From: Nanobdellota archaeon
Lineage (GTDB): Archaea > Nanobdellota > Nanobdellia > Woesearchaeales > DATDXC01
Assembly (NCBI GenBank): GCA_043818675.1
Contig: JBDRFR010000069.1
Location: forward strand, 14,877 to 78,876
Direction of reading: 5' to 3'
DNA length: 64,000 nucleotides
Below, piece after piece: positions 25,501 to 62,748 of the stretch; within the stretch, counting starts at the first letter, position 1; each line of letters opens with the position of its first letter. The position numbers and the translations under genes were made by a program. The notes under the pieces were generated by a model. That model was not told the origin of the DNA. It did no database searches and worked only from the letters and a program-made list of their open reading frames with translations.

Positions 25501-28500
25501 GAAGTTATCCTGGGTAGTCTATATCAAATTATCCATGGTATAAATGGGTCTGGCGGACATCTGTGGAACATATCTGGCGGAAATCTCAGGCATTATGAAC
25601 TTAATGTTCTTGACCTGGATGATGACGGATTTGAAAATGATTTTGTTGTAGGTGATGCCAATGGAAATGTCACAGCATATAATGCTTCTCTGACAAACCA
25701 TGACATGATGTGGTCAATTGATCTAAACGGGGTAGGGGCTAATGATATCTATTCAGTTTCAAATGCAGATATAAATAATGATGGAATAAAAGAAATTCTA
25801 GTGGGTGGAGAAGATGCAATTTTATGGGTTTTAGATAAGTCAGACGGAAGTGTCCTGTGGGATTATACTGTCGGAACAGGAGACATTGGATCAGGGGCTG
25901 GAAAATCCAGAATAACAACCACAGATATAAACAATGATGGAATAAACGAGATTATTGTGGCATCACGAACAAACGCACAAATCCACACCTTCCAGGATGT
26001 AAACTGCATCATAGAAATCAGCGACGGAACATCAGCTGACATGAATTATAACTCAACCTCCAGAAAATGGGAATACAATAAAACATTCATTATTGCAGCT
26101 GACTACGAATATAATGTAACCTGCACAAAGGGAGGATATACTGAACAGGTACAAAGCTCTACTTTATCAGTTGCAAGCTTAAGGACATATCATCAGCCGT
26201 CAGCTGTTTATTCAAACTATACAAGGTTTGTCGCTAATTTCACTGAAGGCACTGGCAAATGCAGGATGAAATACAATAAGACAGGCATATGGAGCAGCTG
26301 GCATAACATGAGCTGGAATGGGACGATAAACGCGTTTGAGCTTGAAGCTGACAATGGGTATAGAAGAGGGCATATGCGCTCAATGCCGGCCGGAACTTAT
26401 GACTATTATATTGACTGCAATAACTCTTTAGGCCAGGCTGTAAATGCAACAGATTCGATAACTGTAAATGATTATGATACAAACCTATCAATATCAAACA
26501 CTAATAATAATCCAGTTATCGACCAACCTATCATTTTCTATGCTAACTATTCAAGAGTTGATCCATACAAAGTAGATAACTGGAAATTAGGAAATGAGAT
26601 TGGACAGGTTGTATGGAATACAAGTGATATTGGCACAAATGCAAATGCGATCGCAGCCATTGACCTGAACAATGATGGAAAGAAAAATGAGTTAATAATA
26701 GTAATGGACAGTGATATTACTGGCTTGTATGCAAATGGCAGTGAGAAGTTCAGCCAGACTTCTGGCATAGGTAATTCAATCTTAGATATAGCTGTTGGTG
26801 ATTTTGACAATGATGGTTATGAAAATGATTTTGCAATTGTAAGAGGCGCAAGCACCCTCGAGGTGTTTAATGAAACAGGCCAGGAAGTATGGGAAAGCGG
26901 CGATTACGGATCTACGCCTGCAATACCGGCTATAGGAGACTTTGATGGAGATGGCATCAAGAATGATTTCTTTATGATGGATGGCGGAAGTGTTTTTGTT
27001 TTTAACTCAACAGAAGGAAAGGTTTGGAGCGAGAGATGCAGCATTACGCATGGTGCCAACGTTTATGCTGGATATGATGCTATAACAACTAGAATTTATG
27101 ATTCATCTAAAGATGATATAGTTTTTGTTTCCAGTGAGAATAGTGCAACACCTGGCATTTGGGCGATTAATACATCATCTATTGGAACATGCAAACAATA
27201 TTATAATGGTTCAGGGAATTTATTTAGATCACTTGATGTTCTGGATATTGACCATGATGGAATTGAAAATGAATTTGTTGTAGGTGAAAATGGAGATGTA
27301 CTTGTATTTAATTTAAGCTTAGATATAATCCTTAGTGATTCTACACCTGATGATAATATTTGGGAGATCAGAAAAATTGACCTGGATAATGATGGATTTA
27401 AGGATGATTTTGTCGCTTCAGAAGATAATCCTCCAAGAATCAGGGCGTATGATAATAATTCTGATTTGAACTGGACATTTAATACTGGCGAATCTGCAGG
27501 AGTGTCTATCTTTTCGATGGAAATAGCTGATGTTAATAATGATGGAATAGAGGATATTTTATTTGGAACAAGCACTGGTATTGTTTATGCTGTTAATATT
27601 AGTGGAAACTTAATGTATAAATATGATATTCAATTAGGAACAATCGGAAATGACAACTCAAGAGCTTCATCAACAGACATCTCAGACATAAACAACGACG
27701 GAATAAATGATGTAGCAGTTGCATCCTTTGATGGCTACGCACACATCCTTCAGGATTCATCCTGCACTATAAAATTCACAGACGGATCATCATACAACAT
27801 GACCTGGAACATAAGTAAAGACAAATGGCAGGCAAACAAATCATTCAGATTAGCAGGGACATACAGCTACAATATTACATGTAATAAAGGCGGATACATA
27901 TCACAAAACCTAACTGCAAGCATTACAGCTGCAAAACAAGGTTCATTCTGCGATTGGGGAAGCTTAGCTACAACATGCCATATTAATACAAGCATAACTG
28001 TAAAGAATAACTACCAATTAAACGCATCCAACATAATAATCCATGAGCTTGGAAACCTATACAATAATTCAGGCATAAGCTTCATAATAAATCTAACCGG
28101 AAACCTAACAATAAAAAGCAGCGGAACAATCAATTTATCCGCAGCAAACTGCGCAAGCGGAACTTGCACAAACGGCGGAAACCTGACAATTATTGCATCC
28201 ACATTCAACCTAAGCAGGGGTTCATTTATTTATTCCAATGGCGGCTCTTTAACATCTGATGGAACCAAGGGTGGTAGTGGAGGAATAATAAATATCACAG
28301 CCAGATCATTCTATTTTGACGGAAATATAACATTAGATGGTGGAGATAATGCAGGAACATACAGTACTGGAGATGGAGGCATAGGTGGCACCATGGTTAT
28401 AGATGTTAATACCAACCTTAACATAGGTGGTAATCTGCTTGGAAAAGGCGGAACCGGAAGATCAAACATCTGCGCTGCAAATAGCGGCAGCAGGGGTAAT

Positions 28501-31500
28501 GGTGGTAAACTGATAATTAATGAAAACAATCTTAACCTGACAGTAAACGGAATTATTGACTTGCCTCCTGGAGAAAGAGGATATTGTGCAAATGGCACAT
28601 TTGGTGCAACTGACCTAAACATAAATACCTTAACTGTAAGCCAAAATGGGCAGCTTAAGATTGGAGGAACAATCAACTCATCAACTATAACCATAAGCGG
28701 TATTTTAGGACCAAAAGAAAGTTTGGGCGGAGACGGCAGGGTAAGCAGAAATAACGCTAGTGAACTGACAATCCTAAGCAATGTTTTAAATTTAACTTCA
28801 GGTGGAATAATTACAGGCAAAGGCCAAAGTGAAACAAACAACCTTGACTATTATTCAGGAACAGGTGCCACAATAAACATTTCAGTTGCAACCTTCTATT
28901 TTGATGGAAATATATCGATCGAAGGCGGAGAAGACTCAAGCGGAAATACTAACGGCGGAGGAGATGCAGGAATTTTGTATTTGGATGTGAATAGTAATTT
29001 GATTGTTAATGGAAACATTTTAGCAGATGGCGGAGTTGGAAGACCAAATGTCTGCGACAGTACAACTACAGGACATAGGGGGAGTGGTGGAACAGTCATC
29101 ATTAATGAGCCAAACCATAACATTAGTTTAGTAGGTCAGATTATTTCAAATAGGGGCACTACTGGACTTTGCGATGACGGCTCCGGCGGAACAATAAATA
29201 TCACAGCATCAGTATTAAACATAACAAACAACATTGAAGCAAAAGGAAACATCTCAGGAAATATTAACCTAAAAGCAGTCAGATTATACATTAACTCAAC
29301 ATTAAACGTAACCTCGGAAACAAATGACCAAAACGGAACAATAAGGATAACTTTCAAAGACAACTTCAACGCAACATATTCAAAGATTGAACCGGTTACA
29401 TACTTAGAAAGAAACACAACAGATGGAATGGTTTCTTTCTTACAATCATTTAACAGAAGATTAAACTCTACAATCCCGTATGAAAACGCAATAACTATAG
29501 CTTACAACAAAATAAACATTAACTCCACGAAATACAAAGACTTAAACAAGTCTGCCGATATAAAACTCTACAGCGCATTCGTCGGCGATATCAGGTTATT
29601 AAAAGACGGATTATTATGCACCTCCTGCAATCTAAAGGATTACTCGTTAGGCACTGCATACTTCAACGTAACATCGTTTACCAACTATTCGATAATCGGC
29701 AACACTACTTTAGTCTTATTTGATTCAGAGTATGATGTTCACCCGTTAAGCAATAACCCGATTATTTTCCAAAATGAAGTGGCCATATTCTACGCAAACT
29801 ATACAAGAAACAACGATAGTATTATTCTAACCGATGCAACTTGCGTTATTTACTTTAACGACACACAATCATGGACAGCTATGAGTTATAAGCCTGATAA
29901 ACAGTTGTTCTCGTATAACAGGACCTTTACAGCTGGCGGCAACTACACATGGAACACCAGCTGCGGCAGATCAGACTATTTAACCCAGTCAACAGAAGAT
30001 AACATATCAATCTCCGCTAACACCCCTCCTGTAATAAACTCTGTAAATATTACTATCAACAACAGTCTTTCAACTTTAGCCTATACTAACTCAACCTTAA
30101 ACTGCATGTTTAATATTACCGATATGGACGAAGGAGAACTTGTAAGAGCGAATATCACCTGGTTTCGGAATTTAGGTGATGGTTATATCCCCTGGACAAT
30201 GGACAACGAAGACGAGATTACCATAACACACAATATCTCGATGAACACAACATCAGGCGACATTGAGCCAGGCAAAACCAACCACAGCGACAGCTGGATC
30301 TGCCAGGTTACAGCATACGACTTATATAACGGCACCTCAATAACAAACTCCTCACCGTTGACAATCCAAAACTACAGCACTGTTTTAGTAATCTTTGACG
30401 AAGAAACAGACATTGAACAGCACAGGCGCTCAAACACAAGCACAATCTACAAGTTCCAGAACACCTCATTTTATGCTAATTACACCTTAAACCATCAGAT
30501 CATAAATCCTGCAATCTGCAGTATCTATTTCAACGATTCAGTAAGCATCAACATGACATACAAAGACACCCTATATTATTATAACAGAACTTTTACAAAA
30601 GGCGGCAATTTCACATTCAATATTACGTGTAAACGGTTCAATTACACAACAAAGACCAACTTTAGCTGGCTATGGATAACCTACAACTCATCACTAAGCA
30701 TCTTTGACCAGGAATCAGACGAAGAGACCAACCTATTAAGCAATAATGAGATCTACCAAAACGAAAACAGCTTTTTCTACGCAAATTATACAAGGGACGA
30801 TGATAACGCAACGATTACACAAGGCAATTGCACTATCTCTTTTGATGACAAAAAAGCCAACATGAGCTACAACACAAGTTTGCAGCTATTCACATACAAT
30901 AGGAGTTTTGCAGTCAGGGGCACTTATACTTGGTCAATAAATTGCACGACTAAAGGCTACGAGCAGGAGAACAAAACTTCCAGTATAACGGTTCTCTCTG
31001 CCGAGTTTGAGCATATTTATATTACACCCGAGATAGCATACAGCTCTGACAATCTGACTTGCATAAACACTACTGTAACGAATCAGGGCTCGGAAAATTA
31101 TACATTGGTCTATGAGTGGTTTAATGACGACGTTAGGATTGCAATTCTGGATTTAGCTTCCGATGGATCGGTAACACGTAACAACCAGGGCCAGGGAGCT
31201 GCATCTAATGCAATCGACAACAACCTGGCAACAGTTTGGCAGACAGACGAATTATCACTTGGCTGGATAAAGTTCACATTAGATAATACAAGAACCATCG
31301 GCAAATTAGACTATACGTTTAACGGTTCTGGCAATAGGGATAATTTCAACATATCATATTCAACTGACGATTCCACCTACATTACATTATACAGTTCACT
31401 GTCCGACCCAGGAAACGAGGTTACAATAACAAAAACCTTCGACCCTGTAAACATGAGGTATATCAGAATTGATTTCAGGAGCGGCTCGACCCAGGAATTT

Positions 31501-34500
31501 GGCGGATTGGCAGAATTCAATGTCTACCCGACAAACATACTATACAGCTCTTACACAACAAAAGGCGACAGTATCCATTGTACGATAACAGCCATGTTAG
31601 ACGATATTAATGCAACCACGTACACAACAAAATCCAGGTACAGGATTTTTACTAATCAAAGCGATTTCATAGGCGGAACATTAGTTAACACCTCTATTAC
31701 TCACCAGCCCGGCAATATCACGCTATACCCTAACTCAACAGGCAACTATTCAAACACAACAGGATACTACATTTCACCTTCCATTGATTTCCAAAGATTA
31801 TCACCCTCCATCTCGACGATAAGCTGGAACGGTTCAGATACAGGCATCAGTATCCAGACAAGGGTTTCAGCTGACAACAGCACCTGGTCAGAATGGCAAG
31901 GGCCGCAATTGACAAACAGCCCAAATATTTTGGCGCTTATGCATTTCAATGACGCTAACACCACAGTGAACAACGACCTGCCATTGTCAGGCAATTTCAG
32001 TTATAAACAGGCCAAATGGAACAATGGATTATTGATAAATCACACAAGCTATATTAGTTACAATACAAGCTTGTTGAACTATTCAACAGGCACGATCGCT
32101 TTCTGGCTAAAGCCTCTTGCCAATTTACAAGAAGGTTACCTGTTCGACACAGCATACAATGTAAGCATCAACCGAATCTCCTTATACCTTGAAAACTCTG
32201 TTTTATTCTTTAGGATCAGGGACAGTAATGACCGCGACCATATTGTTAACACTACGGTTGACTTCCAGGAAAATGTATGGCAGCATTTAGCAGTAACCTG
32301 GAACTTAACTAACATGTCAATTTACGTAAACAATACTTTGTTCACATCAAACATCAGGTCAAATGAGATCAAAAATGATAGTAACACTCTTCTTTTAGAA
32401 AGATTTGAAGCAGGATCAAAAATACAGAATAATGGCGGCATTTTACAGGGCAGCCTGGTTGATGGTAAATACAGTAATGGGTTTTTATCAGCAAATACAG
32501 GAGACGTTATCAATTATTCCACAACAAACCTTAACATCACAAAAGGCACTATTGAATTCTGGCTGAAACTTCAAAACTCTTTAGACTCAAAAACTTACTA
32601 TTTGTTTGACACTGCGTATAATGACAGTATTGACAGGTTATCAATCTATTTAGAAAATTCAAAACTTAATTTCCTGATAAGGGATAAAGATGACCGCGAC
32701 CATTTGATTAACGCAAGCGTTAATTTCCAGGATGACATTTGGTATTCAATAGCTGCTGCATGGAACCAAACTAATATGAGCTTATACATCAATAATAGTT
32801 ATCAGGCAGGTGATTATAGAAGCACTGAAGTAGCTAACGATTCTGATACCTTACTGATAGAAAGGTTTGAATCAATCAATAAGATAGACACTAACGGCGG
32901 CAGTTTTAAAGGCAGCCTTACCGATGGCAAACATGATAAAGGCTTCTTATCAGCTATAAGCGGAGACGTAATCAATTATTCCACAACAAACCTTAACATC
33001 ACAAAAGGCACTATTGAGTTCTGGCTAAAACTTCAAAACACCTTAGATTCAAAAACTTACTATTTATTTGATACTGCTTATAATGACAGTATTGAAAGGC
33101 TGTCAATCTACCTGGAAAACTCAAAACTTAATTTCCTGATAAGGGACAAGGACGACCGTGACCATTTGATCAACGTAAGTGCAGATTTCCAGGCAGGTGT
33201 TTGGTATTCAATAGCTGCTGCATGGAACCAGACAAACATGAGCTTATACATAAATAACAGCTATCAGGCAGGCGATTATAAAAGTACTGAGATAAAAAAT
33301 GACACAAGCACATTGCTCTTAGAAAGGTTTGAATCAATAGCTAAAATAACAGCTAATAACGGTTATGTTTCAAGCGGCGTAAATCTCACCCAGGGCAGGC
33401 ACAGTAAAGGAATGATCACCGACAGACCAGGCGAATTTGTAAATTATTCTAGTGATTATTTCAACCGCACCAAAGGCACTATCGAATTCTGGATTAAACC
33501 TGTTTGGCCAGGAACTGCTGATAAAACTGATTATTTCTTTGACCAGGGCAGCGGTTCACAAGCAAACAGGATGTTTATTTCAAAAGGCAGTGATCCGGCA
33601 AGCGAATTAAGCATATCAAACTCAAGCATAGTATTTGCCATTTTTGACGGTGCAGGAACATCTCATTATGTAAGTTCTGATATTAGTTCATGGCAATCTT
33701 CGGAATGGCACTCAGTTGCAGCAGTTTACAATTTCACTGGATCATCTTCCTACATGGCTTTATATGTTGACAACGTTTTGCAGGACAACACCCCGACAAA
33801 TCCAGGCGCCTTCACACTCAGCGCAAAATCCATTTTATACATTGGTTCAAACAGGCTAAAGGATCATTATTCAAATGCCACAATTGACTCTTTAAGGATT
33901 TCAAACAACCCAAGGTCAAACTTCAGCTATATTTACGCTGACGATACTATTCCGATTAGTAATAAAGCAGCCTTACAGCATATTGGCAATAGTTATAATT
34001 TAAGTTATCCAGCTAATGCAACAATTGACTCCTTTAGAATATCAAACATACAAAGAACAGGCTTTAGCTATATCTACGCAGATACAATACCATTGCTTAA
34101 CAAAGCAGCCTTATTGCATATTGGCAATAGTTACAATCTAAGTTATCCAGCTAATGCAACTATTGACTCTTTAAGGATATCAAACACACAAAGAACAGAC
34201 TTTAGCTATATTTACCCAGGTGACACACTTCCGATGTCTTCCAAAGCAAAAGAGTTTTTCATAGGCACAAACTACACAAAACACCAGCAGATAAACTCCA
34301 CTATTGATGAGTTTGTAATATACAACAGTATTCAAGATATAGGCGACATTTATCAGACATCGCATACAGCTTTCCAGGGCACTGTTCCCACGCCGCACCT
34401 TAGGTTTTTACAGTACAAGATTAACTTCCAAACAAACTTCACTAACCAAACACCAATCCTTGAAAAGCTGACTATTCAGCAGGATGATTTCCCTATCATT

Positions 34501-37500
34501 ATCAAAAACAAGGCTCCGACAGCCCCTTCCTTATTAACCCCTGCTGATAATAATTGGCTTACGACAGCCACACCTCTGCTAAACTGGACAGAAAGTATCG
34601 ACGTTGACAACGATATTGTTTATTATAATTTATTGATTGACGATGATAGTGATTTCTTAACACCCTATATTGAAAAGGCCAATCCCGGCTTTAATTTAAC
34701 TGACAGTAATTATACAATTAACAGCTCAGAAGCACTCGAGCAATCAACCTATTATTGGAAAGTTAGGGCATTTGATTTGGACAACGCTGATCAGCCCGGC
34801 GAATCAAACGCATCGTCGTTTTCCCAGACTTTCACACTAAGCGTTGATTCTGTTTATCCTAAGATATTCAATGAATCCAAAAGTCCTGATGGCTTTATCT
34901 ATGAGATTTACAACGTAACATTTTTCGTTAACGTATCAGAGTCAAACATTTTGAACGTGACATTAGAAGCTAACTGGTCAAGTGCAATGGTTAATTATAC
35001 AGTCAATAATTATACTGGCACAGGTTCTAACAGGAGGTATAATTATACTGTAAGTAGCACAGAGCTTAGTGCACTTGAGCTTGTCATGTGGCGGTTCTAT
35101 GTAACAGACTCTTCCGGCTCGGTCAATAGAACCCCTCAGCATAACTTCACTGTCCAGCCGGCTGTTGATCTGAACTTATCAGGCATAACACCGCCTGATA
35201 TTATCTATTCCAATCTGACCAGGTTTAATGTTACAATTTTTAACCAAGGCGACGGTGCCGCATCGAATATTAATGTAAGCTGCTATGTTAATGATACGTT
35301 CATTGACAGTTACATTATATCAACAATTGACGGCTTATCCCAAAACAGTTCATATTGCAGCTATACAGCTGTTTTTGGCACAAGTTTCATTCTCGATGCA
35401 ACTGTTGACCCAGCTAACACTATCCCTGAATCAAACGAACTTAATAATGATGGCAACATATCATTTAGTGTCCTGCAAAAAACAGGCATGTCTGCTTATG
35501 ACCAGGAAGACGACGATGAAGATAACGCAGGATGGTTATCTGAGCACGAGACTGCCCCGCTGCAGATGACCTACTACTTTGTAAATTATACAAGCGATCT
35601 GGACAACTCTGCCATTTCTGACGGCATTTGCACAATCTACCTGAACAATTCCGCGATACAGATGACTTATAATTCCAGCGCAGGGTTATATTATTACAAC
35701 CGTTCCTGGGCATTTGCCGGAAGCAACGACTGGAACATAACCTGCAAAAAACCCTTGTATGAAAACAAGACCTATATTTCAGAGACCTATGTCAGGATCT
35801 TATTAAGAAACGCATCAGCTATCGGTTTAACTACACTAACAAGGCACCTAAACCCAGCCGATCCTGTTAATATAACAGTTACTGTCCCAAATCAGAACAT
35901 TCTCTTAAACCTTAGCAGTGTCTGGACAGAGATCATAAAGCCTGACGGGTATAAAGAAAACCTATCGATGAGTGGCGAGCCTTCTGGTGGAATTTACAAT
36001 TTAACATTCAGGAACACTTCCCTGGTCGGAACATACACTGCTAAGTTCTTTGCCAATTTAACTGACGGGTTCAAAGGTGTTGAAACAGCTCGGACTAATT
36101 TCTCTGTTGAAAATATAAGTATGCCGATCTATCTGAACAAATCCAGGATTAATGTTAGCGAACATGTAAAGATATACGGAAAAGCAAGAAGATTTAACAA
36201 CAGCAACTATTTCAATATAACAGGCACAAACCTGTCAATCTGGCAGGATGGTATATTTAACGCAACTGTTATAACTAATTCCACTGCTGATTTTAATAAG
36301 ACAATCATATTTAAGATAGCAGGCACAAGGACTATCAAAGTTAACATTACATCAGCTGAAGGCATATACGGCAATAACCAAACTTCATTAATTGTCAATA
36401 TTCCCCTGCGAAACATTTCAGCAAGAGGTATTACAACAAACACCCGATATGTTAATTATAATGAGACTGTAAATTTATCTATCACTATTCCCACTGAAAA
36501 CATTGGCTCTGCAGATCTTAGCAGTGTTTGGGCAGAAATTACAAAACCCGATTCAAGAAAAGTCAACATAAGCTTATCAGGATCTAGTCAAGGTGGTGTT
36601 TGGAATACCACATTTACTAATAATACATTGCTTGGTACATATACTGTCAGGTATTATGCAAACTTATCAGACGGATTCCGGTACGTAGAACAGGCTATAA
36701 CAAACTATTCGGTGGAGAATATCTCGTTATCGATATATCTTAACAAATCCGTAATCAACAACACTGAAACTATAAAAGTTTACGGAAAAGCCAGACGGCA
36801 CAACGGTTCCAGCTACTTCAATATAACCGGAACAACAATATATATTTGGCAGGATAATGTTTCAAACGGTTCCATAATTACGAATACATCTGGAGATTAT
36901 AACACCACAATTTCCTCATATGTTGCAGGCATAAGGCACCTAAAAGTCAATATTACAACACAAGAAGGATTATACAGTTACAATCTAACAACTTTAAATA
37001 TTAGCATACCGCTTCGTAATAAACAGGCATTAGGTCTTACTACTGATACTAACATGATCCATTACGATGAAGAAGTCAACATCTCAATCAATATACCCTT
37101 GGAATACATAGGAAACGATGAATTAGATAGTATCTGGGCAGAAATTACAAAACCTGACTCCAGAAAAATTAACATAAGCTTTTCAGGATTGAGCACTGGC
37201 GGTATTTGGAACGCATCATTTGATAACACCACGGTTTTAGGCAGATATACTATAAGATATTATGCTAATTTATCGAGTGGTTTTTCTATAACTGAAACAT
37301 CGATTACAAATTTCACCGCAGCTAACATTTCTATTTCGCTTGTGCTAAGCAGGTCAATCCTAAACACAACAAACAACTTAACAGTCAGTGGTAAAGCAAT
37401 AATCTTCAATGGGTCAGTGGCTCAAAATGTAACAGACAGAAACGTTACAGTATTTTTGGGAGGTATACTAGTATCTAACGCAACAACTGACTCTTATGGC

Positions 37501-40500
37501 AATTATAATACAACTTTTTCAGTGCCTACGACAAACCTGGGTGCTGTAATTATAAAAGTTAACATCACTTCAGCTGACAACCTCTATGCATCAAACCAGT
37601 CCGCAGTCACTTTATGGGCTGAAACCATTTTAAATTACACAGCGTCTGCTGATTATTCTGGCACTGTAACAAACTTCACTGTTACAGCCAATTTTGTGCG
37701 TACAGATACAAACACATCTGTCCCCGGAACCTTCAATATTACTATACACAATAACAGCCTAAGATATTACAGGGACTGTAACGGAACTTTATGTATTAAT
37801 TCATTCCTTGTGCCTGGCAGCGTTATCTGGGGTAATTACAGCTTTAATATAACAGCGACTAACATATCTGGTTATTATCATAATGCTTCTGTAAATTTTA
37901 CAGCAATGTTAGAATATAAGAGCACCACTGCTTCGGTCCTTAACTCTAAAAACAAGACTATCATTGATTTTGCAACAGGTTCAACTTATGTATACTATCA
38001 TAACATTACAATTGTCAATTTAGGCAATGCAACAATGAACAATGCTTACGCTCTTGCTGACTTATCCGATCTGGATTTTGATTCTATTGTTAACACCTCA
38101 AGCTGCGGCAATATTCCCCCTAAAAGCAGCTGCAACCAGTCGTTTGCCTTAACTCTTAATTCAAACTCCGAACCTGACGTAAAACTTATCATTTGGAGGG
38201 TAAACCACACCAATAACGACGGCTCGTACTCAAAATCTTCAAATTCTGTCAGGATGACCACCACAATTGTTGGCGCAGTCATAATGGACACATCCACTGG
38301 TTTGATTGACCAGGACATAGAACATGGCCAGTCAGTTAGTTCAGGTTTTGCAATTCAAAGTAATGGTAATCTGGTCCTAAGCAGTGTTGCTGTAGAGCTT
38401 ATAAACGACACTATGCCAAGCTCTTGGTTTAGCTTCACCGGTTCTACGAGTTTTGGCACGATCCCGGCAGGCCAGACAGGCACGGTTACATACTCAATTA
38501 CTATCCCAGAACATTACGCTCCTGGCACATATAATGCAACCATAAACGTAACTGCATCAAACCATAATGAAACATACATTAAGGTCAACATTACCGTTCC
38601 TCTAAATGGCACATGGATTATCAGCGGGGATATCGGTAAGACCACAAATTTCACCCAGAATCTTAATGGCACTGTTGGCAATCTTACGCTCAGCAATCTG
38701 GGCAATATTGAGATGAATTTCAGCATATCCTACTTGCCTGGCGGAAGCAGGCTATACACTGATTTTGGCAGTGATTTATTCCAGGAAAACCAAGCTGGGT
38801 ACAATCCCACCTGGCTGAATATACCAAAAAATACAAGCAGGAATCTCAGCATTTTCCAGAAAAGCTGGTCAAGCAGCTTATCAGATGTTGGCATTAACAT
38901 TTCCATCATTAATTTAAGCGGCACCCCTACAAACAGGAGCATCTATATGGTGTTTAATATTAAAGATGATCCACCTGTTGTTGAAGCCATGTTTTACCTT
39001 GTAAACAATTCCGTCCAGAATTACACTGAATTTAACAAGTCTATTACCATAAAAGCAACTGTAACTGACGACATTGATATTGAACATACCACAAGCAACT
39101 CATATTTCAATGTTAGCTACTATGGAGATTATACAGTTATCAACGCTTCATTTACCGAGTACAGGTACGATAGCGGTTATAAGGAGATAAATTTCACAGC
39201 TAACTTCACACCCACAACGATAGGAGCCCACAATGTCACATTAACTGTCAAAGACAGCGCTTCCCAGATTACAAGATATTCAGGCTACAATTTCACCTCA
39301 ATCGGCAACACTTCCGTCAATATTACATTTAATCTATCAGTCGCCCAAATAACCCAAATAACCCAAAGATTAAGCAAGAATATTACAGTTAATATCACAA
39401 TCAAAAATACTGGATTTGTAAAAGCATATTATAACAATTTAACATGGATTTTACCTTCGGGGTGGTCGATTTATCCAACATTTGACTATTTATCAAGCAT
39501 ATCTTCCGGTGCATCAAAATCAAAGCTTTTCAACTTATCAATCCCTATAGCTACCAGTCCAGGATTATATACAATAACGGCAATCACTAACTGGACAAAT
39601 CCGATAAAAACAAGAAATAGCACTACTGAAACCTTCAGGATAAATGTAACATCCAATAAAATCCTGAATTTAACCATTAACAATAAGACAATAACAATAA
39701 ATCATAGCTCTCAGCGGTCGTATGTGTTTGGTGTGAATGCTACAGGAAATGATAATTTGACCAATGTAAATATAAGTTGTATATCCGGTGAGGTATGCAA
39801 TTTCACAATATCCTATAATAATTCCTTATTTAACGTTAGTGCTGGTTCAGTTATTTATGTAAACACTACAATTACTGTCCCGGAATATCAGGCTCCGGCC
39901 AACTACACCGGAATCTTCAATGTTTCCACAAACAGCTCAAACTCAAAGACTATAAATTTAACAGTGGAAGTGCCTGCTGACGAAACATGGAATATTAGCA
40001 TAGCCACTATTTCAAAAAGTGTCGGCGCTTTAAACTCAGGTATTGTCAGCAAATTCAACATAACAAACAATGGCAACATTATGATAGGTTTCAAGCTTAA
40101 CACCACGAACAACACTATTATTAGTCTTAACGCAACCAGTATAACCGTCCAAAAAAACAGTACAAGTGAAGTATTGATAAGTTACAGCTCACCACAACAG
40201 GCAGCTGATTATATAATCGTTATTATGATCACTAATAATTCTCTGTCGCAAAGGCAGCGCAATTTAACAATTAATCTAACTGTACTTCAGTTCCAGGTAA
40301 ACATAACTTATCCATTAAATATATCTCCGTTAACTAACATTACAGCAAACCAAAACATAACAATAAACGCCACAGCCTATTATATCAATGAAAGCTTGTC
40401 TGAAAATGTGACATGGGCTGTTAAATTTAATGATAGTGTATGCAATGTTTACAATTATACGTACATTAACAGCGTATGGCAGGTCAGGTGCACAACCCCT

Positions 40501-43500
40501 GACATAGACGACGGCAAATACTATTATCTTAAGCTCACTGCTAATTATACAACCTTAAACAATGCATTGACTGACACTGAACCCAACGCTATTTTATACC
40601 GTGACGTCACCGCTCCAACCATCATTTCAAAGAATAAGAAGAACATTGCGCCAGGTAGTGACGTGAACCTAACATTAAACATTACTGACAATGTTAATGT
40701 TTCAACTGTCATTGCTCAGCTGACCTATCCAAATATCACAGGCAATATATCCACCATAATTAATTATACAGCCTCCTATACAAACGGATTATATATTATC
40801 AGCTTATATGATTTGGTCCATATAGGCGATTATGATATTACATACTATATTAATGATACAACAGGCAATTCCCTAACCGACACAGACAATTTCGAGGTTT
40901 ATTTGATAAAACCCAGATTTTCCGGAACCATATCTGACTATCAGGGTAATGGTGTGCCATCTTTTTGGGAATTTTATAGGTCAAACACCTCTACCCTTCT
41001 CACGAATATAACGACTAACTCAACAGGAAGATACAATAGCGGAGATATTCATAACCGGACTTATGACCTTAGAATTAGCGCTCTTGGCCATAAAATAATC
41101 ATTAAAAATCTGAACTTCACAACAATTAAAAATGACGCAATAGACCTTGATTTGATTATTGGCACTGACATTGACACAATTATTACTAACTACAGGCCGT
41201 TAAAAGGTATCGGTGTTAATACAACCTTTAATGTAAGCTATGTCAACTTCACGATTAATTATAGCGGCACAAGTCCTGTATCAGAAACAGGCATAAAGAT
41301 TTTTAGATGTTCAAACTGGTCTTATAAGGTCAGAATTTGCGATAACACCTGGACAGAATTAAACAGCACTGTTTATGTTAGCAGGGATATAGTAATCGCT
41401 TCTTCTTCAGGATTTTCTGCATATATAGCTGCCGAGCTAAAATGCGGCAACGGCATATGCGAAGAGATATACGGTGAAACTTCAGCAAACTGCGCAGCTG
41501 ACTGCATAACAGCCCAGGGTCCAGCTTCAATTTCTGTTAGCAGCGGTGGTGGCGGTGGTGGCGGTGGCGGAGGCAGCGGACTGTCAAAAGAAGACTTAAG
41601 AGCTGAATTAGAAGCATTAAACTTGCTAAACATTACTGATAAGATTGAAGATATTGTCAAAGCCACAAAAAAACTGGCAGGTGTAGAAATGGCGACCACC
41701 TCGATATATAAGGAGCTTTTCCCAAAAGAAGACGCCTCAGCAAGGATTAGGATGCGAAACACTCTCGATACCAACATCAGATTAAACACCAAAGTTGAAG
41801 GCGCTGTAAAAGATTTTGTATTCTTTGAAAATTATGCAGTAACTCTTTCAGGCGGTGAAGAAAAAGACATTATAGTAAGAATAACCATCCCGCAGTTTAC
41901 AAAACCTGGATCATACGATGGTGACATTATTTTAATGCGTGACAATGAAGAGGTCAGGATCCCGACGACCATTAGAGTTTTACAGGAAGAAGGAAAACTT
42001 TTAGACGTCAAAATCCAGCCGTTAGTAGACTCAATCTCGCCTGGCGAAACTCTGCTTCTTCGAACAGACTTGATAAACCTTGGTAAGACTAAACGTGTGG
42101 ATGTCCAGTTTAAGCTGCAATTAACCGACCCCAGGACAGGTGAAATACTAAAAGAAACAGAAGAGGCATTTGCAATCGAGACATCACTAACAACAACAAA
42201 AGAACTTGAGATTCCAAAAGAGATCAAATTAGGCAAATATTTAGTTCAGGGCACTGCATATTATAGCAGTCTTGAAGACCGTAATCAGGAAGCAGTATCT
42301 ATTGCAACCATAAACATCCAGCAGCCATTTTTAGAAAGGGAATTTTTAGGCATTAAGAATGAAAGTTATATGTTCGGATTTATTATAGCTTTAGCATTGA
42401 TTGCACTGTTTATTTTCTACACATATAAGCAGAAAAAGAAGAAACGGTACATTAAGGTAATAGATCTTAAAACTTTGCCAAAACCCGGAAAGAATTCTGG
42501 ATTTATCGGTAAGATAGCAGAAACAGGCATTAGGACTTTCATTGACATTAACAAGCTTCAGACACATACACTTATAGCTGGCGCAACAGGCAGCGGTAAA
42601 ACAATAGCTATCCAGGACATTATCGAAGAGTCTCTTTTAAAAGGCATCAGTGTGATAGTCTTTGATCCTACTGCTCAATGGACCGGCTTTTTAAGAAAGT
42701 GTAAACAGCCGTCTATGTTAAAACGCTACAGTTATTTTGACATGAAGCCAAAAGACGCAAAAGCTTTCAAAGGCAACATCAGGACCATTACAAATCCGCG
42801 TGAGATTATTGAAATTAAGCAATTCATGGCTTCAGGTGAGATCACAATCTTTAACACAAGCAATCTCGAGCCAAAAGAGATGGACATTGTAGTAGCATCG
42901 ACTGTCCAGCAAATATTCAAGGCAAACCTAGAGGAAAGCCCTGACCTAAAAACTCTGATAGTCTATGACGAAGTTCACCGGCTGCTTCCAAAATTCGGCG
43001 GCAGCGGCAAAGGCTTTATACAGGTTGAAAGAGGCGTTAGAGAATTCAGGAAATGGGGTGTTGGCATTGTATTGATAAGCCAGGTGCTCAGCGACTTCAT
43101 CGGTGAGATCAAAGCTAATATAGGCACAGAGATCCAGTTAAGGACCCGTTACGAAAACGATCTCGAAAGGATCAGCATGAAATACGGTGAAGATATTCAA
43201 AAATCTATTGTAAAGGCCGCTGTAGGAACAGGTATGATCGTCAATGCTGAATATAACCATGGCCGCCCATATTTCGTCAGTTTCCGGCCAATACTTCATT
43301 CAATAACAAAAATAAATGACAAAGACCTTGCTAGTTATACACAATACGCAAAACGCACAGAGGATATTACTTACCAGCTTGAACAATTAAAACTTTTAAA
43401 TGTTGACATATTTGATTTAGAATTAGAGCTGAAGTTGTCCGATAGTAAAATTCGTTCCGGCCAGTTTGAAATGGTCGAGATTTACCTAAAATCTCTTGAG

Positions 43501-43815: not shown

Positions 43816-43857
43816 TTTTCATAAAATATTTAAAGAGCAAAAACCCATTAATGTCAA

Positions 43858-44919
43858 ATGAAACAAAACATGGTCCCGCCGGATATTGAACAGTCCTCAG
43901 ATGAGGAAGTAATTGAAGAAGAGTCTGTTGAAGAAAGGGCCGATATATCAAAAGAAGTAGCATTTGAAAAATTAAAAACCCAGCTTGAATCATTAAACCA
44001 GGTAAGGGAAACCAATAATGAGCGATTTTCAAGGATTAGTGAGCAAATAGGTGAAATTCGCAGCATGGTTATTGAAAACGAGAAGAATATGCGTGATGTT
44101 AGTATTAAAGCCACAATGGCCTCTGATTCTGTTAAAGAAGTAAAACCAGAAATTTTAGGGACCCAGGTAAGAAAAATCGACATGAAGGTTGAAACATTAA
44201 AACAAAAAATTGAGGCTAAAAACGTAATGGACAATATGATCATGCAGGAGCTTAAAGAACTGAGAGCAAAAATTAACCTTTTCAAAGGAACTGACGCAGT
44301 TTTAAGCCTTAACGAAGAAGTAAAAAATGAACTAATCAATATCTCCAAAATTAAAAATTCTGTTGAGATTCATGCAGACAAGGTTGAACAGGTTTTCGTC
44401 CATATTCAAAAGAACTTTGTAGAATTCGAAAAATTAAAAAGCCAGAATGAAAATATGCTGGCTGTAAGTTCAGCATTGCAAAAACAAGTAAATGGCCTTC
44501 AGACTCAATTAAAAACCATATCTACAAAAGATGATTTAAGCAGGTTTCGCAAAACCATAAACGATAACCTTAGCTCTATTAATAAATTCTCAAAAAATTT
44601 AAGAAAAAATAAGCAGCTGATAACTTTGCTAAAAAAGATAGAATTTCGTCTTCAAAGCATGGTTTTTGATAATAAAAAAAAGATCGGCGAATTAAAAGAG
44701 GAAGACGGAACAATAAAAAGCAGCATAGCAGAAATTGACTGTCATCTTAGCACTTTGTCAAAAAAAATAAAAAGCGCTACTCCAAAAAATCATATTAAGC
44801 ATGTCAAAAAACACTTCATGCTCCATAAGAAAAAATCAGGGATCATATTAAAAACTCTTGAAAAAATTGAAAATAAATTTTTTAGATGGTCAAAAAAATG
44901 TCAAAAGAAGAAGTTATAA
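43858..44919 (+). CDS. coiled-coil protein (353 aa)
   Basis: An acidic N-terminus is followed by long heptad-like K/E/L/I/N-rich sequence (LKTQLESLNQVRETNNERFSRISEQIGEIRSMVIENEKNM...). The gene starts 42 nt after the giant gene stop. Confidence 0.6.
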   Translation: MKQNMVPPDIEQSSDEEVIEEESVEERADISKEVAFEKLKTQLESLNQVRETNNERFSRISEQIGEIRSMVIENEKNMRDVSIKATMASDSVKEVKPEILGTQVRKIDMKVETLKQKIEAKNVMDNMIMQELKELRAKINLFKGTDAVLSLNEEVKNELINISKIKNSVEIHADKVEQVFVHIQKNFVEFEKLKSQNENMLAVSSALQKQVNGLQTQLKTISTKDDLSRFRKTINDNLSSINKFSKNLRKNKQLITLLKKIEFRLQSMVFDNKKKIGELKEEDGTIKSSIAEIDCHLSTLSKKIKSATPKNHIKHVKKHFMLHKKKSGIILKTLEKIENKFFRWSKKCQKKKL

Positions 44920-45770
44920 AAAACGCTGTTGAGAAGTTAAACAAAGACTACGAAAAAGCCAGAATAGAAGAAAATAAGGCACAAGCCATGCTTGCAAACT
45001 ACAAAAAACTGCACGATGCAGAAAAAGCTATATTAAAAAGCAAAAATGACCAGCTTCAGGCTGTAAAGCTTAAAGCTGACAAAATCAGAGAAGAGCTGAA
45101 AATCGCAGAAGAAGACTTCGAAGAAGAAAAACTGCGCTTAATAGATATTGAAAATGCAGAGCAAAAAGCAGGCCAGGATATTAAAACAAAAAATAAGCAG
45201 ACACTGGAGATTGCAGAGCATATAAAAGACATTATTGAGGAAGAAAATAGCGTTAAGGCTGCAAAAAATAAATATAATAAGATCCGGCAATTATATGACA
45301 ATGCAAAAATGGAGCTTGAAAACGCAAAAAATAAAGCAGAAGCAGAGATTAAGAAAACACTTAAAAGCGAAGGCGTGCAAAGGGTTACTAAAGCTCATTT
45401 AGAAAAAGCCAAAACATTTATTGACCAAAATTATATATCTAAAGATTTAGAACAGGAAATAAAAACTGACGAAATGATCAGAAAAGACCTTGAAAAAGAA
45501 GAGCTTCTCGATAAAGAGATCCAGGTTGACGAAAAAATAATTGAAGAAGATACCAATTTAGAAGACCTTCAAAAACTGAACAAGGATTTAGAGCAGGAAA
45601 TAAAAGAAAAAAAGAAAGAAGAGAAGGTTATCGACAAAGACCTGAACCAAAAAAAGGAAGAAGGATCTTTAGCCAAAAAATTTCTTGGCAAGCTAAAACA
45701 AAAAGTCCTGCCCAGTAAAGAAGACGATTTAGAAGATCTTGAAAAAAGGTTTAAGGATTTGGATGATTAA
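44886..45770 (+). CDS. K/E-rich coiled-coil protein (294 aa)
   Basis: Charged heptad-like repeats run throughout. It overlaps the upstream gene by 34 nt and converges on rfcL with a 20-nt overlap. Confidence 0.55.
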   Translation: MVKKMSKEEVIKNAVEKLNKDYEKARIEENKAQAMLANYKKLHDAEKAILKSKNDQLQAVKLKADKIREELKIAEEDFEEEKLRLIDIENAEQKAGQDIKTKNKQTLEIAEHIKDIIEEENSVKAAKNKYNKIRQLYDNAKMELENAKNKAEAEIKKTLKSEGVQRVTKAHLEKAKTFIDQNYISKDLEQEIKTDEMIRKDLEKEELLDKEIQVDEKIIEEDTNLEDLQKLNKDLEQEIKEKKKEEKVIDKDLNQKKEEGSLAKKFLGKLKQKVLPSKEDDLEDLEKRFKDLDD

Positions 45771-46971: not shown

Positions 46972-46986
46972 ACATTTGCAAAGCCA

Positions 46987-47022
46987 TATTTATTTAATAA
47001 TTTTATGGTAAGGTTTATAAAA
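46987..47022. promoter_or_regulatory. divergent TATA-like boxes for rfcL (-) and aRF1 (+), consistent with near-leaderless transcripts
   Basis: TTTATAAAA at 47014-47022 is centred about 27 nt upstream of the aRF1 ATG (47045). TTATTAAATAAATA (reverse of 46987-47000) is centred about 23 nt upstream of the rfcL ATG (46971). Confidence 0.35.
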
Positions 47023-47044
47023 GGGTTTATACTCAGATGTTATC

Positions 47045-48142: not shown

Positions 48143-48174
48143 ACTTTATTAACAAGGTATTAATTTCTTTTCTC

Positions 48175-56096: not shown

Positions 56097-58421
56097 TTAT
56101 TTATACAGGCTATCTTCAATAACTGCGATTGTATCTTCTTTTGTTTTTGCTGCTCGGAGTTTTTCTGCTGTCTCTTTATCTGACCCCATGATCCAGTCTG
56201 CAAAAATATTTTCAGATTCAGATGCATGCGCTGCATACGTTCCTTCATCCATAGTATTGATTTCATCAATCAATTCCTGCGGCGATGATACGGTAACTCC
56301 GTTCTTAAGCTTCAATGGTGGCAGCTTTTTTTGTTCTTTTTTCTTTTCTTGTTTTGCAGCTGCTTTTTTTGCCTCTTCTGGATGTTCTTTTTCGAATTTT
56401 TCCCTTTCTTTTTTAGCCTTTTCAAATTCTTCCTGCAATTCTTTTTCAGAAACAAGCTTCAGTTTTCTCTTCTTAGCTTGTTTGCCAATTTTATCCCATG
56501 CAGTGTCAAGCCTAGGTTTTAAGCCTTCCAGATAAATATCAACCATGTTAAAACTGCCAGACTTAACTTTATCAAGCGCCATCTTAAGTTCCAGTTTTAG
56601 ATCAAAAATATCAACCTCTTCCTCTCTAAGCTGTTCAATCTGATCATCCAGATCGTCTATTATATCATTATACTTATTGTAATTATCAAGTTCTTCGTCT
56701 GTTAATCTTGCATGTTCATGTAAAAGAGGCCTAAAACTTACAAAATAAGGATTGCCTCTGTTATATGCAGAATTTGAAATCATCCCTGTGCCTGTTGCAG
56801 ACTTCAGTAGAGATTGCAGCATGTAAGACCCATATTTATCTTTTATCCTGTTCAAATCGCCTTCATCACGTGTACGCATTTGAATTTCTGTATTAATATT
56901 TGCTTTTGTTTCACCTATAAAATCTGTCAGAACCTGGCTGATCAACACAAGGCCGACCCCCCATTTTCTAAATTCTCTTGCGCCTCTTTCAATTTGGATA
57001 AAACCCTGTCCGGTTCCGCCGAATTTTGGCAGCAGTCTGTGAACCTCGTCAAAAATTACAATAAGCCTTAATTGCGGGCTTTCTGGCAGGTCGGCGTGAA
57101 ATACTTCTCTGATTGTATTGGCTACAAGTATATCACTGTCTTTGGGATCAAGTTTATTGATAGCAAAAACGTGAATTTCACCAGGAATTAAGTATTTTTT
57201 TATATCAATGATCTGGCGAGCATCCATAATCTGGTGCACATTCCCGTTAAATGCTCTTGCATCCGTTTTCTTGAGTCCGTAACTAGGATACAAAGCTATC
57301 ATTTTTTTATTCGTGCATTTTCTAAGAAAGCCTGTCCACTGCGCTGTTGGGTCAAACACTATAATCGCAACTCCTTTTAACAGCGCTTCTTCTACAAGAA
57401 CTTCCGCAGAAACTGTCTTTCCACCGCCTGTTGAACCGGCAATTAGGCTGTGAATTGTCAGCTGATCCATATCAAAATACGCTTTAACTTTTGATTCAGC
57501 AATTTTTCCGATAAGAATCGACCGCTCGCCAGGTTTTGGCAGCAATTTAAAGTCAATTTTACCTTTATATCTTTTCTTTTTAGCAAGCCTTTTGCGTATT
57601 ATTAAAAATACTAATGCAGCTATTGCAAGAAAAGATAGTGTTAATAACAGCCATCTCACAGGCATTATCCCAAAAATCAGATAATCCCATATCGGTTCAC
57701 TTACTAAGAATCTCGCGCTTGCAGTTGATGATATCCCCAGATAATCCACGCGAGCTGTAATTACATACTCACCCGGTCTGATAAATTCAGGTACTTCAAA
57801 AAATTTTATAAGAGTTGTTGACTTATTAAGTCTTAAGTTCTCAGTTTCTTCCAGAAAAGTTTTGTTGACCAGATAAGTTTTTTTATCTGCCATGCTGTCA
57901 ATCGAATAATGCAAAGTAATATTAAATCCATCTTTCAATAAAAGATTATGAATATTAATCTTATACCTTAAAGTATCCTTAAGATATACTCTTTCTGATA
58001 ATGGCTCAACTTTGATAGAAATTGCGCTAATAGGAACTCCGCTAATATCCCCTACTGTTAGCATTGCAGGTATTCTTTCATTGACATTTCCGGATAAGAC
58101 TAATGTTCCGTTAAAAAAACCCATGTTATCAGCAAAAAATAAAATTTTGGCATCTGCACTTGATTTTGCCTCAAGATTAATAGTCGTCACATCAGGCACC
58201 ATATAACTGCTGATGTTGCCCTCTGATGAAAACATTACCGTTATTGGATTATCGCCTTTATTTTCAATGGTAAGCACATGCTCTTCGAATTTGCCTATTT
58301 TAACATTTTTAATTATTATATCATCCGATATTCGATAATTGCTATTTTCAATTTGTGCAGCAACATTTATAGACATTAATATTACTATTATTACTATCGC
58401 AAAACCTCTATTTTTTATCAT
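56097..58421 (-). CDS. ectodomain-TM-FtsK/HerA-type ATPase (774 aa), stand-alone paralogue of the giant protein C-terminus
   Basis: Signal/anchor MIKNRGFAIVIIVILMSINVAA, a ~240-aa ectodomain, and TM LLLTLSFLAIAALVFLII followed by RKRLAKKKRYK. Walker A AGSTGGGKT lies at 57414-57440. Also present: FDPTAQWTGFLRKC, Walker B IVIFDEVHRLLP, REFRKWGVGLVLISQ, and a K/E-rich coiled-coil tail. Confidence 0.85.
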   Translation of the reverse strand: MIKNRGFAIVIIVILMSINVAAQIENSNYRISDDIIIKNVKIGKFEEHVLTIENKGDNPITVMFSSEGNISSYMVPDVTTINLEAKSSADAKILFFADNMGFFNGTLVLSGNVNERIPAMLTVGDISGVPISAISIKVEPLSERVYLKDTLRYKINIHNLLLKDGFNITLHYSIDSMADKKTYLVNKTFLEETENLRLNKSTTLIKFFEVPEFIRPGEYVITARVDYLGISSTASARFLVSEPIWDYLIFGIMPVRWLLLTLSFLAIAALVFLIIRKRLAKKKRYKGKIDFKLLPKPGERSILIGKIAESKVKAYFDMDQLTIHSLIAGSTGGGKTVSAEVLVEEALLKGVAIIVFDPTAQWTGFLRKCTNKKMIALYPSYGLKKTDARAFNGNVHQIMDARQIIDIKKYLIPGEIHVFAINKLDPKDSDILVANTIREVFHADLPESPQLRLIVIFDEVHRLLPKFGGTGQGFIQIERGAREFRKWGVGLVLISQVLTDFIGETKANINTEIQMRTRDEGDLNRIKDKYGSYMLQSLLKSATGTGMISNSAYNRGNPYFVSFRPLLHEHARLTDEELDNYNKYNDIIDDLDDQIEQLREEEVDIFDLKLELKMALDKVKSGSFNMVDIYLEGLKPRLDTAWDKIGKQAKKRKLKLVSEKELQEEFEKAKKEREKFEKEHPEEAKKAAAKQEKKKEQKKLPPLKLKNGVTVSSPQELIDEINTMDEGTYAAHASESENIFADWIMGSDKETAEKLRAAKTKEDTIAVIEDSLYK

Positions 58422-62446: not shown

Positions 62447-62748
62447 TTACTAGCCTCAATCTTAAGTTGATTTTTGATCTCATTTAATTCACTGACCACT
62501 TTCTTAGTGACTTCTTTTTCACTCTTTTTTCTAATTTCATCCATGATATCCTTTCTTAATCTTGCAACCTCTGCAAGTTCTGGATACATCGATTTTAGCC
62601 AATTTTTTCTGGTAATGCTCCTAATCTTTTCACTAACGTCCATATAGTGCTCTTTTTCAGCGAGCTCTTTAAGTTTAGACAATAATGATTCAGGCATCCT
62701 TACAGAAACCAGGACATCACTCAAACAAATCACCCTTATCACAAACAC
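62443..62748 (-). CDS. RHH (CopG-like) DNA-binding protein
   Basis: VLVSVRMPESLLSKLKELAEKEHYMDVSEKIRSITRKNW has a strand followed by two helices. The real start is probably TTG 62724 or ATG 62697 rather than the track GTG 62748. The stop overlaps the 1342-aa gene start. Confidence 0.55.
   Translation of the reverse strand: MFVIRVICLSDVLVSVRMPESLLSKLKELAEKEHYMDVSEKIRSITRKNWLKSMYPELAEVARLRKDIMDEIRKKSEKEVTKKVVSELNEIKNQLKIEASK

Follow-up and report, generated by a model that had tools for sequence, protein, structure and literature searches.

The name SPEARE was introduced for proteins of Nanohaloarchaeota of up to 8,553 amino acids (aa) that are largely extracytoplasmic, with at least one laminin-G and other adhesion domains, a transmembrane (TM) segment close to the C-terminal end and an intracellular part that is conserved (Hamm et al. 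2019, PMC6642349). The latter was originally taken as a type III restriction enzyme, and the supplement of the same paper lists DUF87 and a P-loop there; homologues were recorded in Woese-, Aenigm- and Micrarchaeota and in Altiarchaeales, and short versions of 655 and 717 aa are known (PMC6642349). In a 2023 re-analysis based on cultured nanohaloarchaea, a signal peptide is followed by a giant ectodomain, a TM, a ‘VirB4/TraG-like ATPase’ in the cytosol and a coiled coil; its authors detected no endonuclease, argued that a serine protease is not general, and proposed a ‘straw’ resembling a type IV secretion system (T4SS) (PMC10266531). The giants in the literature are NAR1_1133 (5,998 aa), Nanopetramus SG9 (8,553 aa), SVXNc_0300 (9,409 aa) and EX4484-52 KA27 (12,127 aa) (PMC6642349, PMC10266531, PMC8470020), the last described in 2021 as a SPEARE protein carrying TM helices at its two ends (PMC8470020). 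Here we describe an open reading frame (ORF) of 12,098 codons, referred to below as the giant, from a Nanobdellota archaeon (contig JBDRFR010000069.1). It lies in the stretch analysed, a window of 64,000 nucleotides, and probably encodes a protein of the same kind (Table 1).

The assignment of the giant to the SPEARE-type proteins of DPANN archaea, by identity and architecture, is one in which we have considerable confidence, because it rests on direct homology through a published member. Among 84 related loci whose ORFs were clustered together with those of the window, the ORF of locus L020 is exactly GenBank RLG14629.1, a listed SPEARE match (PMC6642349). It is 55% identical to the ATPase module of the giant (64% in the core), collinear over about 1,300 aa, and has the same coiled-coil gene behind it as the giant. 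The source of locus L080, ‘Euryarchaeota archaeon SM23-78’, is included in the phylogeny table of that paper (PMC6642349), and the ResIII match behind the ‘RE’ in SPEARE is reproduced in the window module. The bulk of the giant is extracytoplasmic, the TM lies towards the C-terminus and a cytoplasmic C-terminal region follows. Laminin-G is accompanied by FG-GAP, CARDB and NPCBM_assoc, and the intracellular P-loop/DUF87/‘ResIII’ homology is established via RLG14629.1, NAR1_1133 being compared by description only. The order of signal peptide, LamG/Ig-like/NPCBM_assoc ectodomain, TM, DUF87/P-loop ATPase and coiled-coil end is shared, and so is the size range, including short forms of 650-780 aa; the layout of the 717-aa SPEARE version (PMC6642349) is that of a 774-aa paralogue in the window.

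There are also differences. No serine-protease or toxin-like domain, nor any peptidase family, is detected in the window ectodomain at Pfam E <= 0.001. The gene downstream is a coiled-coil protein, whereas in cultured nanohaloarchaea it is a VirB4-family ATPase (PMC10266531), and the host is a non-halophilic metagenome-assembled genome of Nanoarchaeota/Woesearchaeota type. The preliminary description of this DNA, made from the sequence alone, had regarded the fusion of ectodomain and ATPase as undescribed; it is in fact the SPEARE architecture (PMC6642349, PMC10266531, PMC8470020). The fusion is therefore already known: the giant adds one more large member to an existing family and does not define a system of a new kind. 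New here are the placement of the ATPase in the HerA branch without a nuclease domain, the wide distribution of the family, its three types of locus, a conserved coiled-coil partner and the lack of T4SS genes nearby.

HerA is the top match to the ATPase module across every method used. In Pfam, DUF87 (the HerA central domain) reaches 46.2 bits (cut-off 23.2) and HerA_C 38.9 bits (cut-off 22), while the matches to ResIII, TrwB_AAD_bind, FtsK_SpoIIIE and AAA_10 are weaker and local to the P-loop, AAA_10 falling under its cut-off (23.6 vs 27.5 bits) and TrwB_AAD_bind covering only 46 residues. The top PDB sequence for a profile of 60 sequences (alignment A1) is HerA 4d2i (3e-9). Foldseek with an AlphaFold2 (AF2) monomer model of the module (mean pLDDT 89.9, pTM 0.81) also ranks HerA best (1.6e-11), ahead of anti-phage HerAs, TcpA, FtsK and B204. 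The module clears the curated FtsK-HerA family threshold and shows the family fold, as anticipated by the preliminary description, which had named an FtsK/HerA-type pump ATPase and had placed AGATGSGKT, VIVFDPTAQW, LIVYDEVH and REFRKWGVGIVLISQ exactly where they are found.

The catalytic site is complete. Walker A K95, Walker B D218/E219, R245 and sensor Q256 are invariant in A1, and many further core residues are strongly conserved. The arginine of FRKWG, likewise invariant, aligns with that of GRKFG in Sulfolobus solfataricus HerA 4d2i, which we take to be the arginine finger R381. Walker A, the DE of Walker B, an arginine about 25 residues past it and a glutamine at a strand end are the marks of the HerA/VirB4 branch of the FtsK-HerA superfamily, and, as judged from sequence, the module is a member of that branch with its catalytic residues intact. 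It is not of the ABC, AAA+ or signal recognition particle GTPase class, its catalytic residues are kept and its predicted location is not extracellular, the three points on which the preliminary description had made its proposal depend.

The original SPEARE reading, in which a type III restriction endonuclease degrades imported DNA (PMC6642349), draws on the Pfam ResIII match (4e-8, 33.8 bits, cut-off 22.5). ResIII, however, is a helicase/ATPase subunit family and not a nuclease, its match spans Walker A to Walker B only, DUF87/HerA outscores it, and the fold is that of HerA. According to the AF2 model, helices span module residues 335-498, in line with the coiled-coil tail noticed earlier. 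These roughly 165 residues follow the ATPase core, and core and helices together fill all 463 cytoplasmic residues, so that no space is left for a nuclease; the modelled cytoplasmic part holds a HerA-fold ATPase and helices only. No endonuclease was found in PMC10266531 either. The restriction endonuclease reading is effectively refuted by the HerA fold and the lack of space, and we regard it as highly improbable.

Of the characterised systems, HerA (4d2i, the translocase of archaeal HerA-NurA DNA-end resection) and its bacterial anti-phage counterparts are closest in profile and fold, and the module shares with them Walker A and B, an arginine-finger motif RE.RK.GVG and a strand with SQ at its end. 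Unlike HerA, the giant is membrane-anchored and lacks a HAS-barrel, having instead a TM helix and about 50 residues ahead of the P-loop. It is thus not a HerA proper, as there is also no NurA gene in the window and the NCBIfam HerA equivalog models score only 18-26 bits against cut-offs of 800-970. HerA systems further differ in having a NurA, Sir2 or DUF4297 partner. That the giant is a HerA-type anti-virus defence module on a surface sensor is very unlikely: PADLOC does return matches, but at the superfamily level only, no Sir2, DUF4297 or nuclease effector partner occurs in the window or the related loci, and the family is conserved, often multi-copy in DPANN genomes, and linked to adhesins.

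CedD, a protein of intercellular DNA transfer, carries a HerA/VirB4-like ATPase behind a TM (PMC11868833), and the giant resembles it in this order. The analogy with the Ced system drawn in the preliminary description holds at superfamily level and no closer, the CedD model of NCBIfam reaching 34.8 bits against a cut-off of 600 (TraC and TraD are also far below threshold) and no polytopic CedA-like gene lying nearby. Unlike VirB4, CedB and CedD, which are ATPases of conjugation and of crenarchaeal DNA import, the giant has no VirB4-type N-terminal domain (CagE_TrbE_VirB), and no CedA/VirB6-like channel or pilin genes are found close to it; to our knowledge, a giant ectodomain does not occur in those systems. 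The membrane-anchored pumps FtsK/SpoIIIE, Streptomyces TraB, the coupling proteins TrwB/TcpA and the type VII secretion ATPases EccC/EssC are farther away in sequence and fold than HerA or VirB4. These FtsK-type pumps cross the membrane with 2-4 TM helices in each subunit and lack a large ectodomain, in contrast to the single TM and giant ectodomain seen here, and the module is without FHA domain or tandem ATPase domains. The multi-span N-terminal anchor, alpha/beta motor and gamma domain of FtsK/SpoIIIE are not present.

The family is large. A search of 5.8 billion proteins returned 571 relatives of the module at E <= 1e-5, typically 765-785 aa long and with source names of Woese-, Pace-, Nano-, Aenigm- and Altiarchaeota, and HMMER, run exhaustively on 1.84 billion cluster representatives, found 371 at E <= 1e-30. 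Among the best 150 of these 371 there are dozens of proteins of 2,000-6,253 aa with the module at the extreme C-terminus. When one genome per GTDB species is scanned, relatives turn up in at least 549 species-level genomes. The survey of related genomes called for in the preliminary description does recover the ectodomain-TM-ATPase architecture across the family, with ectodomains from about 240 to 4,846 aa and a mode at 240-265 aa (141 complete-looking members). No module of the acidic, salt-in type was seen among the best 80 loci, and the family is unmentioned in a giant-gene survey of Omnitrophota and in the archaeal ‘dark matter’ paper.

The frame is open across the entire 10-kb upstream flank in at least 12 of the best 80 loci. 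More than 20 ORFs from independent assemblies align to the giant as single collinear high-scoring segment pairs of about 2,100 aa (35-55% identity) that run through stalk, TM and ATPase. Since these pairs cross the junction, an assembly chimera is excluded, and the junction is also continuous in dozens of database proteins. The case for an artefact, either a chimera or a read-through joining an adhesin gene to an ATPase gene, comes from locus L002, where the orthologous region is split; that locus looks like a collinear gene with frameshifts or in-frame stops, and the artefact is scarcely credible. On this comparative evidence, the fusion is real, old and common. Locus L002 itself (positions 1-11638 of a JGI metagenome contig) is collinear with the last ~2,150 codons of the giant and is divided by a frameshift and short gaps into four ORFs of >3,037, 187, 332 and 545 aa, the result of either a pseudogene or sequencing errors.

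N-glycosylation is a feature of archaeal surface proteins, and the distribution of N-X-S/T sequons divides the giant sharply at the TM. There are 580 of them in the 11,582-aa ectodomain (5.0 per 100 aa), compared with 224 expected from composition-preserving shuffles, and 2 in the 463-aa cytoplasmic tail, which equals the chance expectation. The tail is rich in Lys and Glu, the ectodomain in Asn, Ser and Thr, and basic residues flank both hydrophobic segments on the predicted cytoplasmic side, as the positive-inside rule demands. Because of the sequon contrast, the basic stretch after the TM and the difference in composition, the ATPase is predicted to be cytoplasmic, again as first supposed.

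The ectodomain is built of adhesion modules. Pfam detects about 11 stretches each of Laminin_G_3 and of FG-GAP_3 (beta-propellers), together with CARDB, NPCBM_assoc, MG2 and other Ig-like folds, Laminin_G_3 matching at 1e-92, 3e-59 and 4e-40 in three chunks. All modules detected are of a binding type, and no protease, nuclease, glycosidase or toxin-like domain was found at the threshold given above. The first ~7,000 aa consist of about eight copies of a ~1,000-aa supermodule with 30-80% identity. These repeats are visible only when the protein is cut into 250-aa chunks and compared with the whole by BLAST, the uncut giant giving the identity match alone against itself. The last ~1,650 ectodomain residues form the conserved stalk. 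GC skew within the gene changes from +0.1 to +0.38 over 6-28 kb to -0.04 to -0.17 over 30-42 kb; the switch (window ~28000-44000) falls roughly at the boundary between the LamG/FG-GAP supermodules and the unique stalk, and is probably an effect of amino-acid composition rather than a replication feature.

Near the end of the stalk is a cysteine motif with the consensus CGNG[ILVA]CE..YGET...C..DC, followed by 6-18 glycines and always placed ~330-350 aa ahead of Walker A in the giant clade. Its carriers include the giant of the window, L005, L008-L012, L016, L023, L029, L031-L034 and others. Since the ecto- and cytoplasmic parts of SPEARE appeared in different proteomic size fractions (PMC6642349), the motif and its poly-Gly run may be a hinge or a processing (cut) site of the giants.

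The window contains a second member of the family, a 774-aa protein (GenBank MFH1642052.1). In BLASTP the two are 44% identical over 566 aa (E = 2e-164), residues 11,464-12,059 of the giant aligning with 101-696 of the paralogue, a stretch that begins in the membrane-proximal Ig-like domains, crosses the TM and ATPase and reaches into the helical tail. The preliminary description had the last ~700 residues of the giant aligning along their whole length with the short protein: some 600 do align, but the first 100 and last 78 residues of the paralogue are without a match in the giant. Both identical strings quoted there are present in the two proteins, and the ~50-fold difference in ectodomain size also holds (11,582 vs ~232 aa). 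The further suggestion that the giant is the short protein with an expanded ectodomain is correct in so far as the two are paralogues of a family with variable ectodomain length, but not in the direct descent it implies. Neighbour-joining of the ATPase core places the giant in a clade of 26 sequences, all very long or cut by a contig end, and the 774-aa protein in a separate clade with other ~775-aa and ~1,300-aa members. Core identity is 75.8% between the giant and L005 and 83.9% between the 774-aa protein and L083, but 55.8% between the two in the window. These clades and identities indicate that the paralogues derive from an old duplication and that the giant did not arise by recent inflation of the short protein.

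In the 774-aa type, the last ~70 residues (window 56100-56444, minus strand) bear a motif F..HV...KN.FA.WI that resembles DUF5752, with a weak Pfam match (E = 0.033). In the ~1,300-aa locus type this motif opens a separate ~230-aa protein just downstream (cluster c3_233, 23 loci), so the DUF5752-like domain looks to be fused in the one type and split in the other. Downstream of the short paralogue (window 51786-55228, minus strand) are four tandem ~245-aa paralogues, 62-86% identical, each with a signal peptide and without a Pfam family, and homologues are equally placed in L038, L082 and L083.

Three types of locus can be recognised in the clustered ORFs. Type A has the giant ATPase fusion, a coiled-coil protein and often a convergent surface protein of ~1,155 aa. 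Type B has a ribbon-helix-helix (RHH) protein, a PKD surface protein with a C-terminal TM, an ATPase protein of ~1,300 aa, a DUF5752-like protein, a coiled-coil protein, a protein of ~197 aa and a further PKD-like protein. Type C has RHH and PKD proteins and an ATPase protein of ~775 aa, followed either by KaiC-like ATPases or by a helix-turn-helix protein and secreted ~245-aa paralogues. Of these, the window has one of type A (7519-45770) and one of type C (51786-62748). The conserved neighbours are the coiled-coil, PKD surface, RHH and DUF5752-like proteins, and the 1,342-aa PKD protein of the window is of the kind conserved as a partner upstream of family members that are short or ~1,300 aa long. 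No BLAST similarity to the membrane-proximal module of the giant was found in this PKD protein or in the ~1,155-aa convergent surface protein. A homologue of the coiled-coil partner lies downstream on the same strand in 60 of the 84 loci. The 353-aa partner in the window has no TM and no Pfam family, AF2 gives long helices alone (pTM 0.26), and its profile finds only generic coiled-coil noise among PDB sequences.

Two other functions can be set against this neighbourhood. In the first, the giant is the ‘straw’ of a T4SS-like apparatus through which a VirB4/TraG-like ATPase powers injection of effectors into the host (PMC10266531). Weak Pfam and NCBIfam matches to TrwB_AAD_bind, AAA_10, TraC, TraD and VirB4_plasma point that way, as does the VirB4-family gene downstream of the giant in cultured nanohaloarchaea (PMC10266531). 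However, no VirB4, VirB6/CedA-like, pilin or pilin-like, relaxase or nuclease gene is a conserved neighbour in the window and the 84 loci, and no VirB2 is found there either. The VirB4 N-terminal domain is missing, AAA_10 is sub-threshold, the TrwB match is confined to the P-loop and HerA is best by every method; we therefore consider this apparatus improbable for the present family. In the second, ATP-driven ring assembly would cluster adhesins and tie them to a cytoplasmic coiled-coil lattice, with integrin-like inside-out control of adhesion and no passage through a pore. The FG-GAP propellers and LamG domains of this ectodomain are of the sort found in integrins and adhesins, a long coiled coil is the only widely conserved cytoplasmic partner, and a single TM per subunit is ill-suited to a channel. 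On the other hand, all characterised members of the FtsK-HerA superfamily translocate DNA or protein, and the very strong conservation of catalytic and core residues is typical of a working motor. Such a scaffolding or mechanical role is unlikely, though less so than the T4SS-like apparatus.

The function that we favour, by analogy with its relatives, is that of a ring translocase, for which the chances are just short of even. A polypeptide running from signal peptide or anchor through an 11.6k-aa glycosylated LamG/FG-GAP adhesin, an Ig-like stalk and a TM to a HerA/VirB4-branch ATPase and helical tail would assemble through its ATPase into a ring, probably a hexamer, as do HerA, VirB4, TrwB and FtsK. 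Because the TM replaces the HAS-barrel and only ~50 residues separate it from the P-loop, this ring would sit directly beneath the membrane. It would gather several ectodomains at the contact with the host cell, and ATP would drive a polymer across or along that contact, the ATPase working together with the downstream coiled-coil protein. DNA is the usual substrate in the HerA/VirB4 branch. For this reason, and given the nucleotide need of symbionts, we infer that host-derived DNA is slightly likelier than protein as the polymer, but DNA as the substrate remains doubtful in itself. Mixed rings of paralogous subunits are conceivable, because paralogues are encoded in tandem in some genomes; in L050, L051 and L060, family members of ~775 aa and ~1,400-1,700 aa stand in tandem at one locus.

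Several points weigh against a ring translocase. One TM per subunit would amount to six helices in all, hardly enough for a channel that passes DNA or protein, and the 84 loci show no conserved polytopic membrane protein close by. The conserved partner is a coiled coil and not a nuclease, channel or relaxase, and suits a scaffold or mechanical role equally. The ATPase has neither the HAS-barrel of HerA nor the N-terminal domain of VirB4. Finally, the SPEARE ectodomain and the TM-plus-cytoplasmic part were recovered in different proteomic size fractions (PMC6642349), so the halves of the protein may be separated after synthesis and the covalent link may not persist, which would weaken the coupling of adhesin to motor.

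Table 1. Coordinates of the giant, its parts and its conserved neighbours in the 64,000-nucleotide window.
Feature	Position	Strand	Basis or remark
Giant ORF, 12,098 codons, probable SPEARE-type surface protein	7519..43815	+	Open frame; probable ATG 7525
N-terminal hydrophobic segment, aa 16-34, basic n-region ahead; signal peptide or signal anchor	7564..7620	+	Kyte-Doolittle scan
Ectodomain, 11,582 aa	7621..42366	+	Pfam, chunk-vs-whole BLAST, sequon excess
Membrane-proximal ‘stalk’, aa ~9,943-11,616, conserved	37345..42366	+	Collinear with other giants of the clade
Cys motif CGNGICEEIYGETSANCAADC, then 10-Gly run; ~270 aa ahead of TM	41443..41574	+	Spacing kept in giant clade
Single TM helix YMFGFIIALALIALFIFYT, aa 11,617-11,635, then KQKKKKR	42367..42423	+	Hydrophobicity; long helix 15-42 in AF2 model
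Predicted cytoplasmic HerA/VirB4-branch P-loop ATPase core, without HAS-barrel	42466..43320	+	Pfam, profile search, Foldseek, alignment
Walker A AGATGSGKT	42577..42603	+	G/K/T invariant in alignment A1
VIVFDPTAQW motif	42652..42681	+	
Walker B LIVYDEVH	42955..42978	+	D218/E219 invariant in A1; aligns to HerA IEEAH
REFRKWGVGIVLISQ, candidate arginine finger and sensor strand with terminal Gln	43039..43083	+	Alignment to HerA 4d2i; Arg invariant
All-helical C-terminal domain and Lys/Glu-rich coiled-coil tail	43321..43812	+	AF2 secondary structure
Cytoplasmic coiled-coil protein, 353 aa, 42 nt past the stop codon of the giant	43858..44919	+	Conserved partner gene
Second coiled-coil protein, 294 aa, overlaps the 353-aa gene; not conserved elsewhere	44886..45770	+	
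Short paralogue, 774 aa (GenBank MFH1642052.1): signal, ~232-aa Ig-like ectodomain, TM, ATPase, helical domain, DUF5752-like end	56097..58421	-	
PKD surface protein, 1,342 aa: signal peptide, C-terminal TM, cytoplasmic tail; 4-bp overlap with 774-aa gene	58418..62446	-	
RHH protein, head of short-paralogue operon	62443..62748	-	Pfam; conserved in 19 loci

Upstream of the giant, a 751-aa membrane-anchored protein (2878-5133, plus strand) has a ~135-aa domain 48% identical to the N-terminus of the 1,342-aa PKD protein, and this domain recurs upstream of ATPase genes in L036, L050, L060 and L068. It is followed by overlapping genes for HEPN (167 aa) and nucleotidyltransferase (200 aa) proteins just upstream of the giant (5201-6303, plus strand), a typical HEPN/MNT toxin-antitoxin module. 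Next is a 310-aa protein (6293-7225, plus strand) whose N-terminal segment is Cys-rich and zinc-ribbon-like and whose C-terminal stretch GHIDIL...IFDYKP resembles a PD-(D/E)xK nuclease motif; it has no Pfam match and no homologue in the 84 related loci. Between the two family loci (45751-51762) are genes for an RFC-like AAA+ ATPase, aRF1, a YgjP-like metallopeptidase, aIF5A, an M50 site-2 protease with PDZ and a rhomboid protease, and these housekeeping genes confirm an archaeal chromosome rather than a mobile element.

DPANN archaea rely on physical contact with a host, and the candidates that stand out most for taking host material are SPEARE-type proteins, which account for several percent of their tiny genomes. 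The conserved cytoplasmic part of the family is predicted to be an intact HerA/VirB4-branch motor instead of a restriction enzyme, the family is spread far beyond the halophiles for which the name was coined, it has a conserved coiled-coil partner in the cytoplasm, and T4SS genes are no general feature of the loci. These results constrain the design of biochemical and cryo-electron tomography tests and open no new question. One broader proposal, which we hold to be unlikely as it stands, is that SPEARE-type proteins and their coiled-coil partner form a self-contained adhesin-translocase across DPANN, with a HerA-like ring beneath the membrane for uptake or delivery of host DNA or protein at the cell-cell contact without a T4SS or Ced apparatus. 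If true, this would add a new class of machine for intercellular transport and would supply the missing nucleotide route for auxotrophic symbionts.

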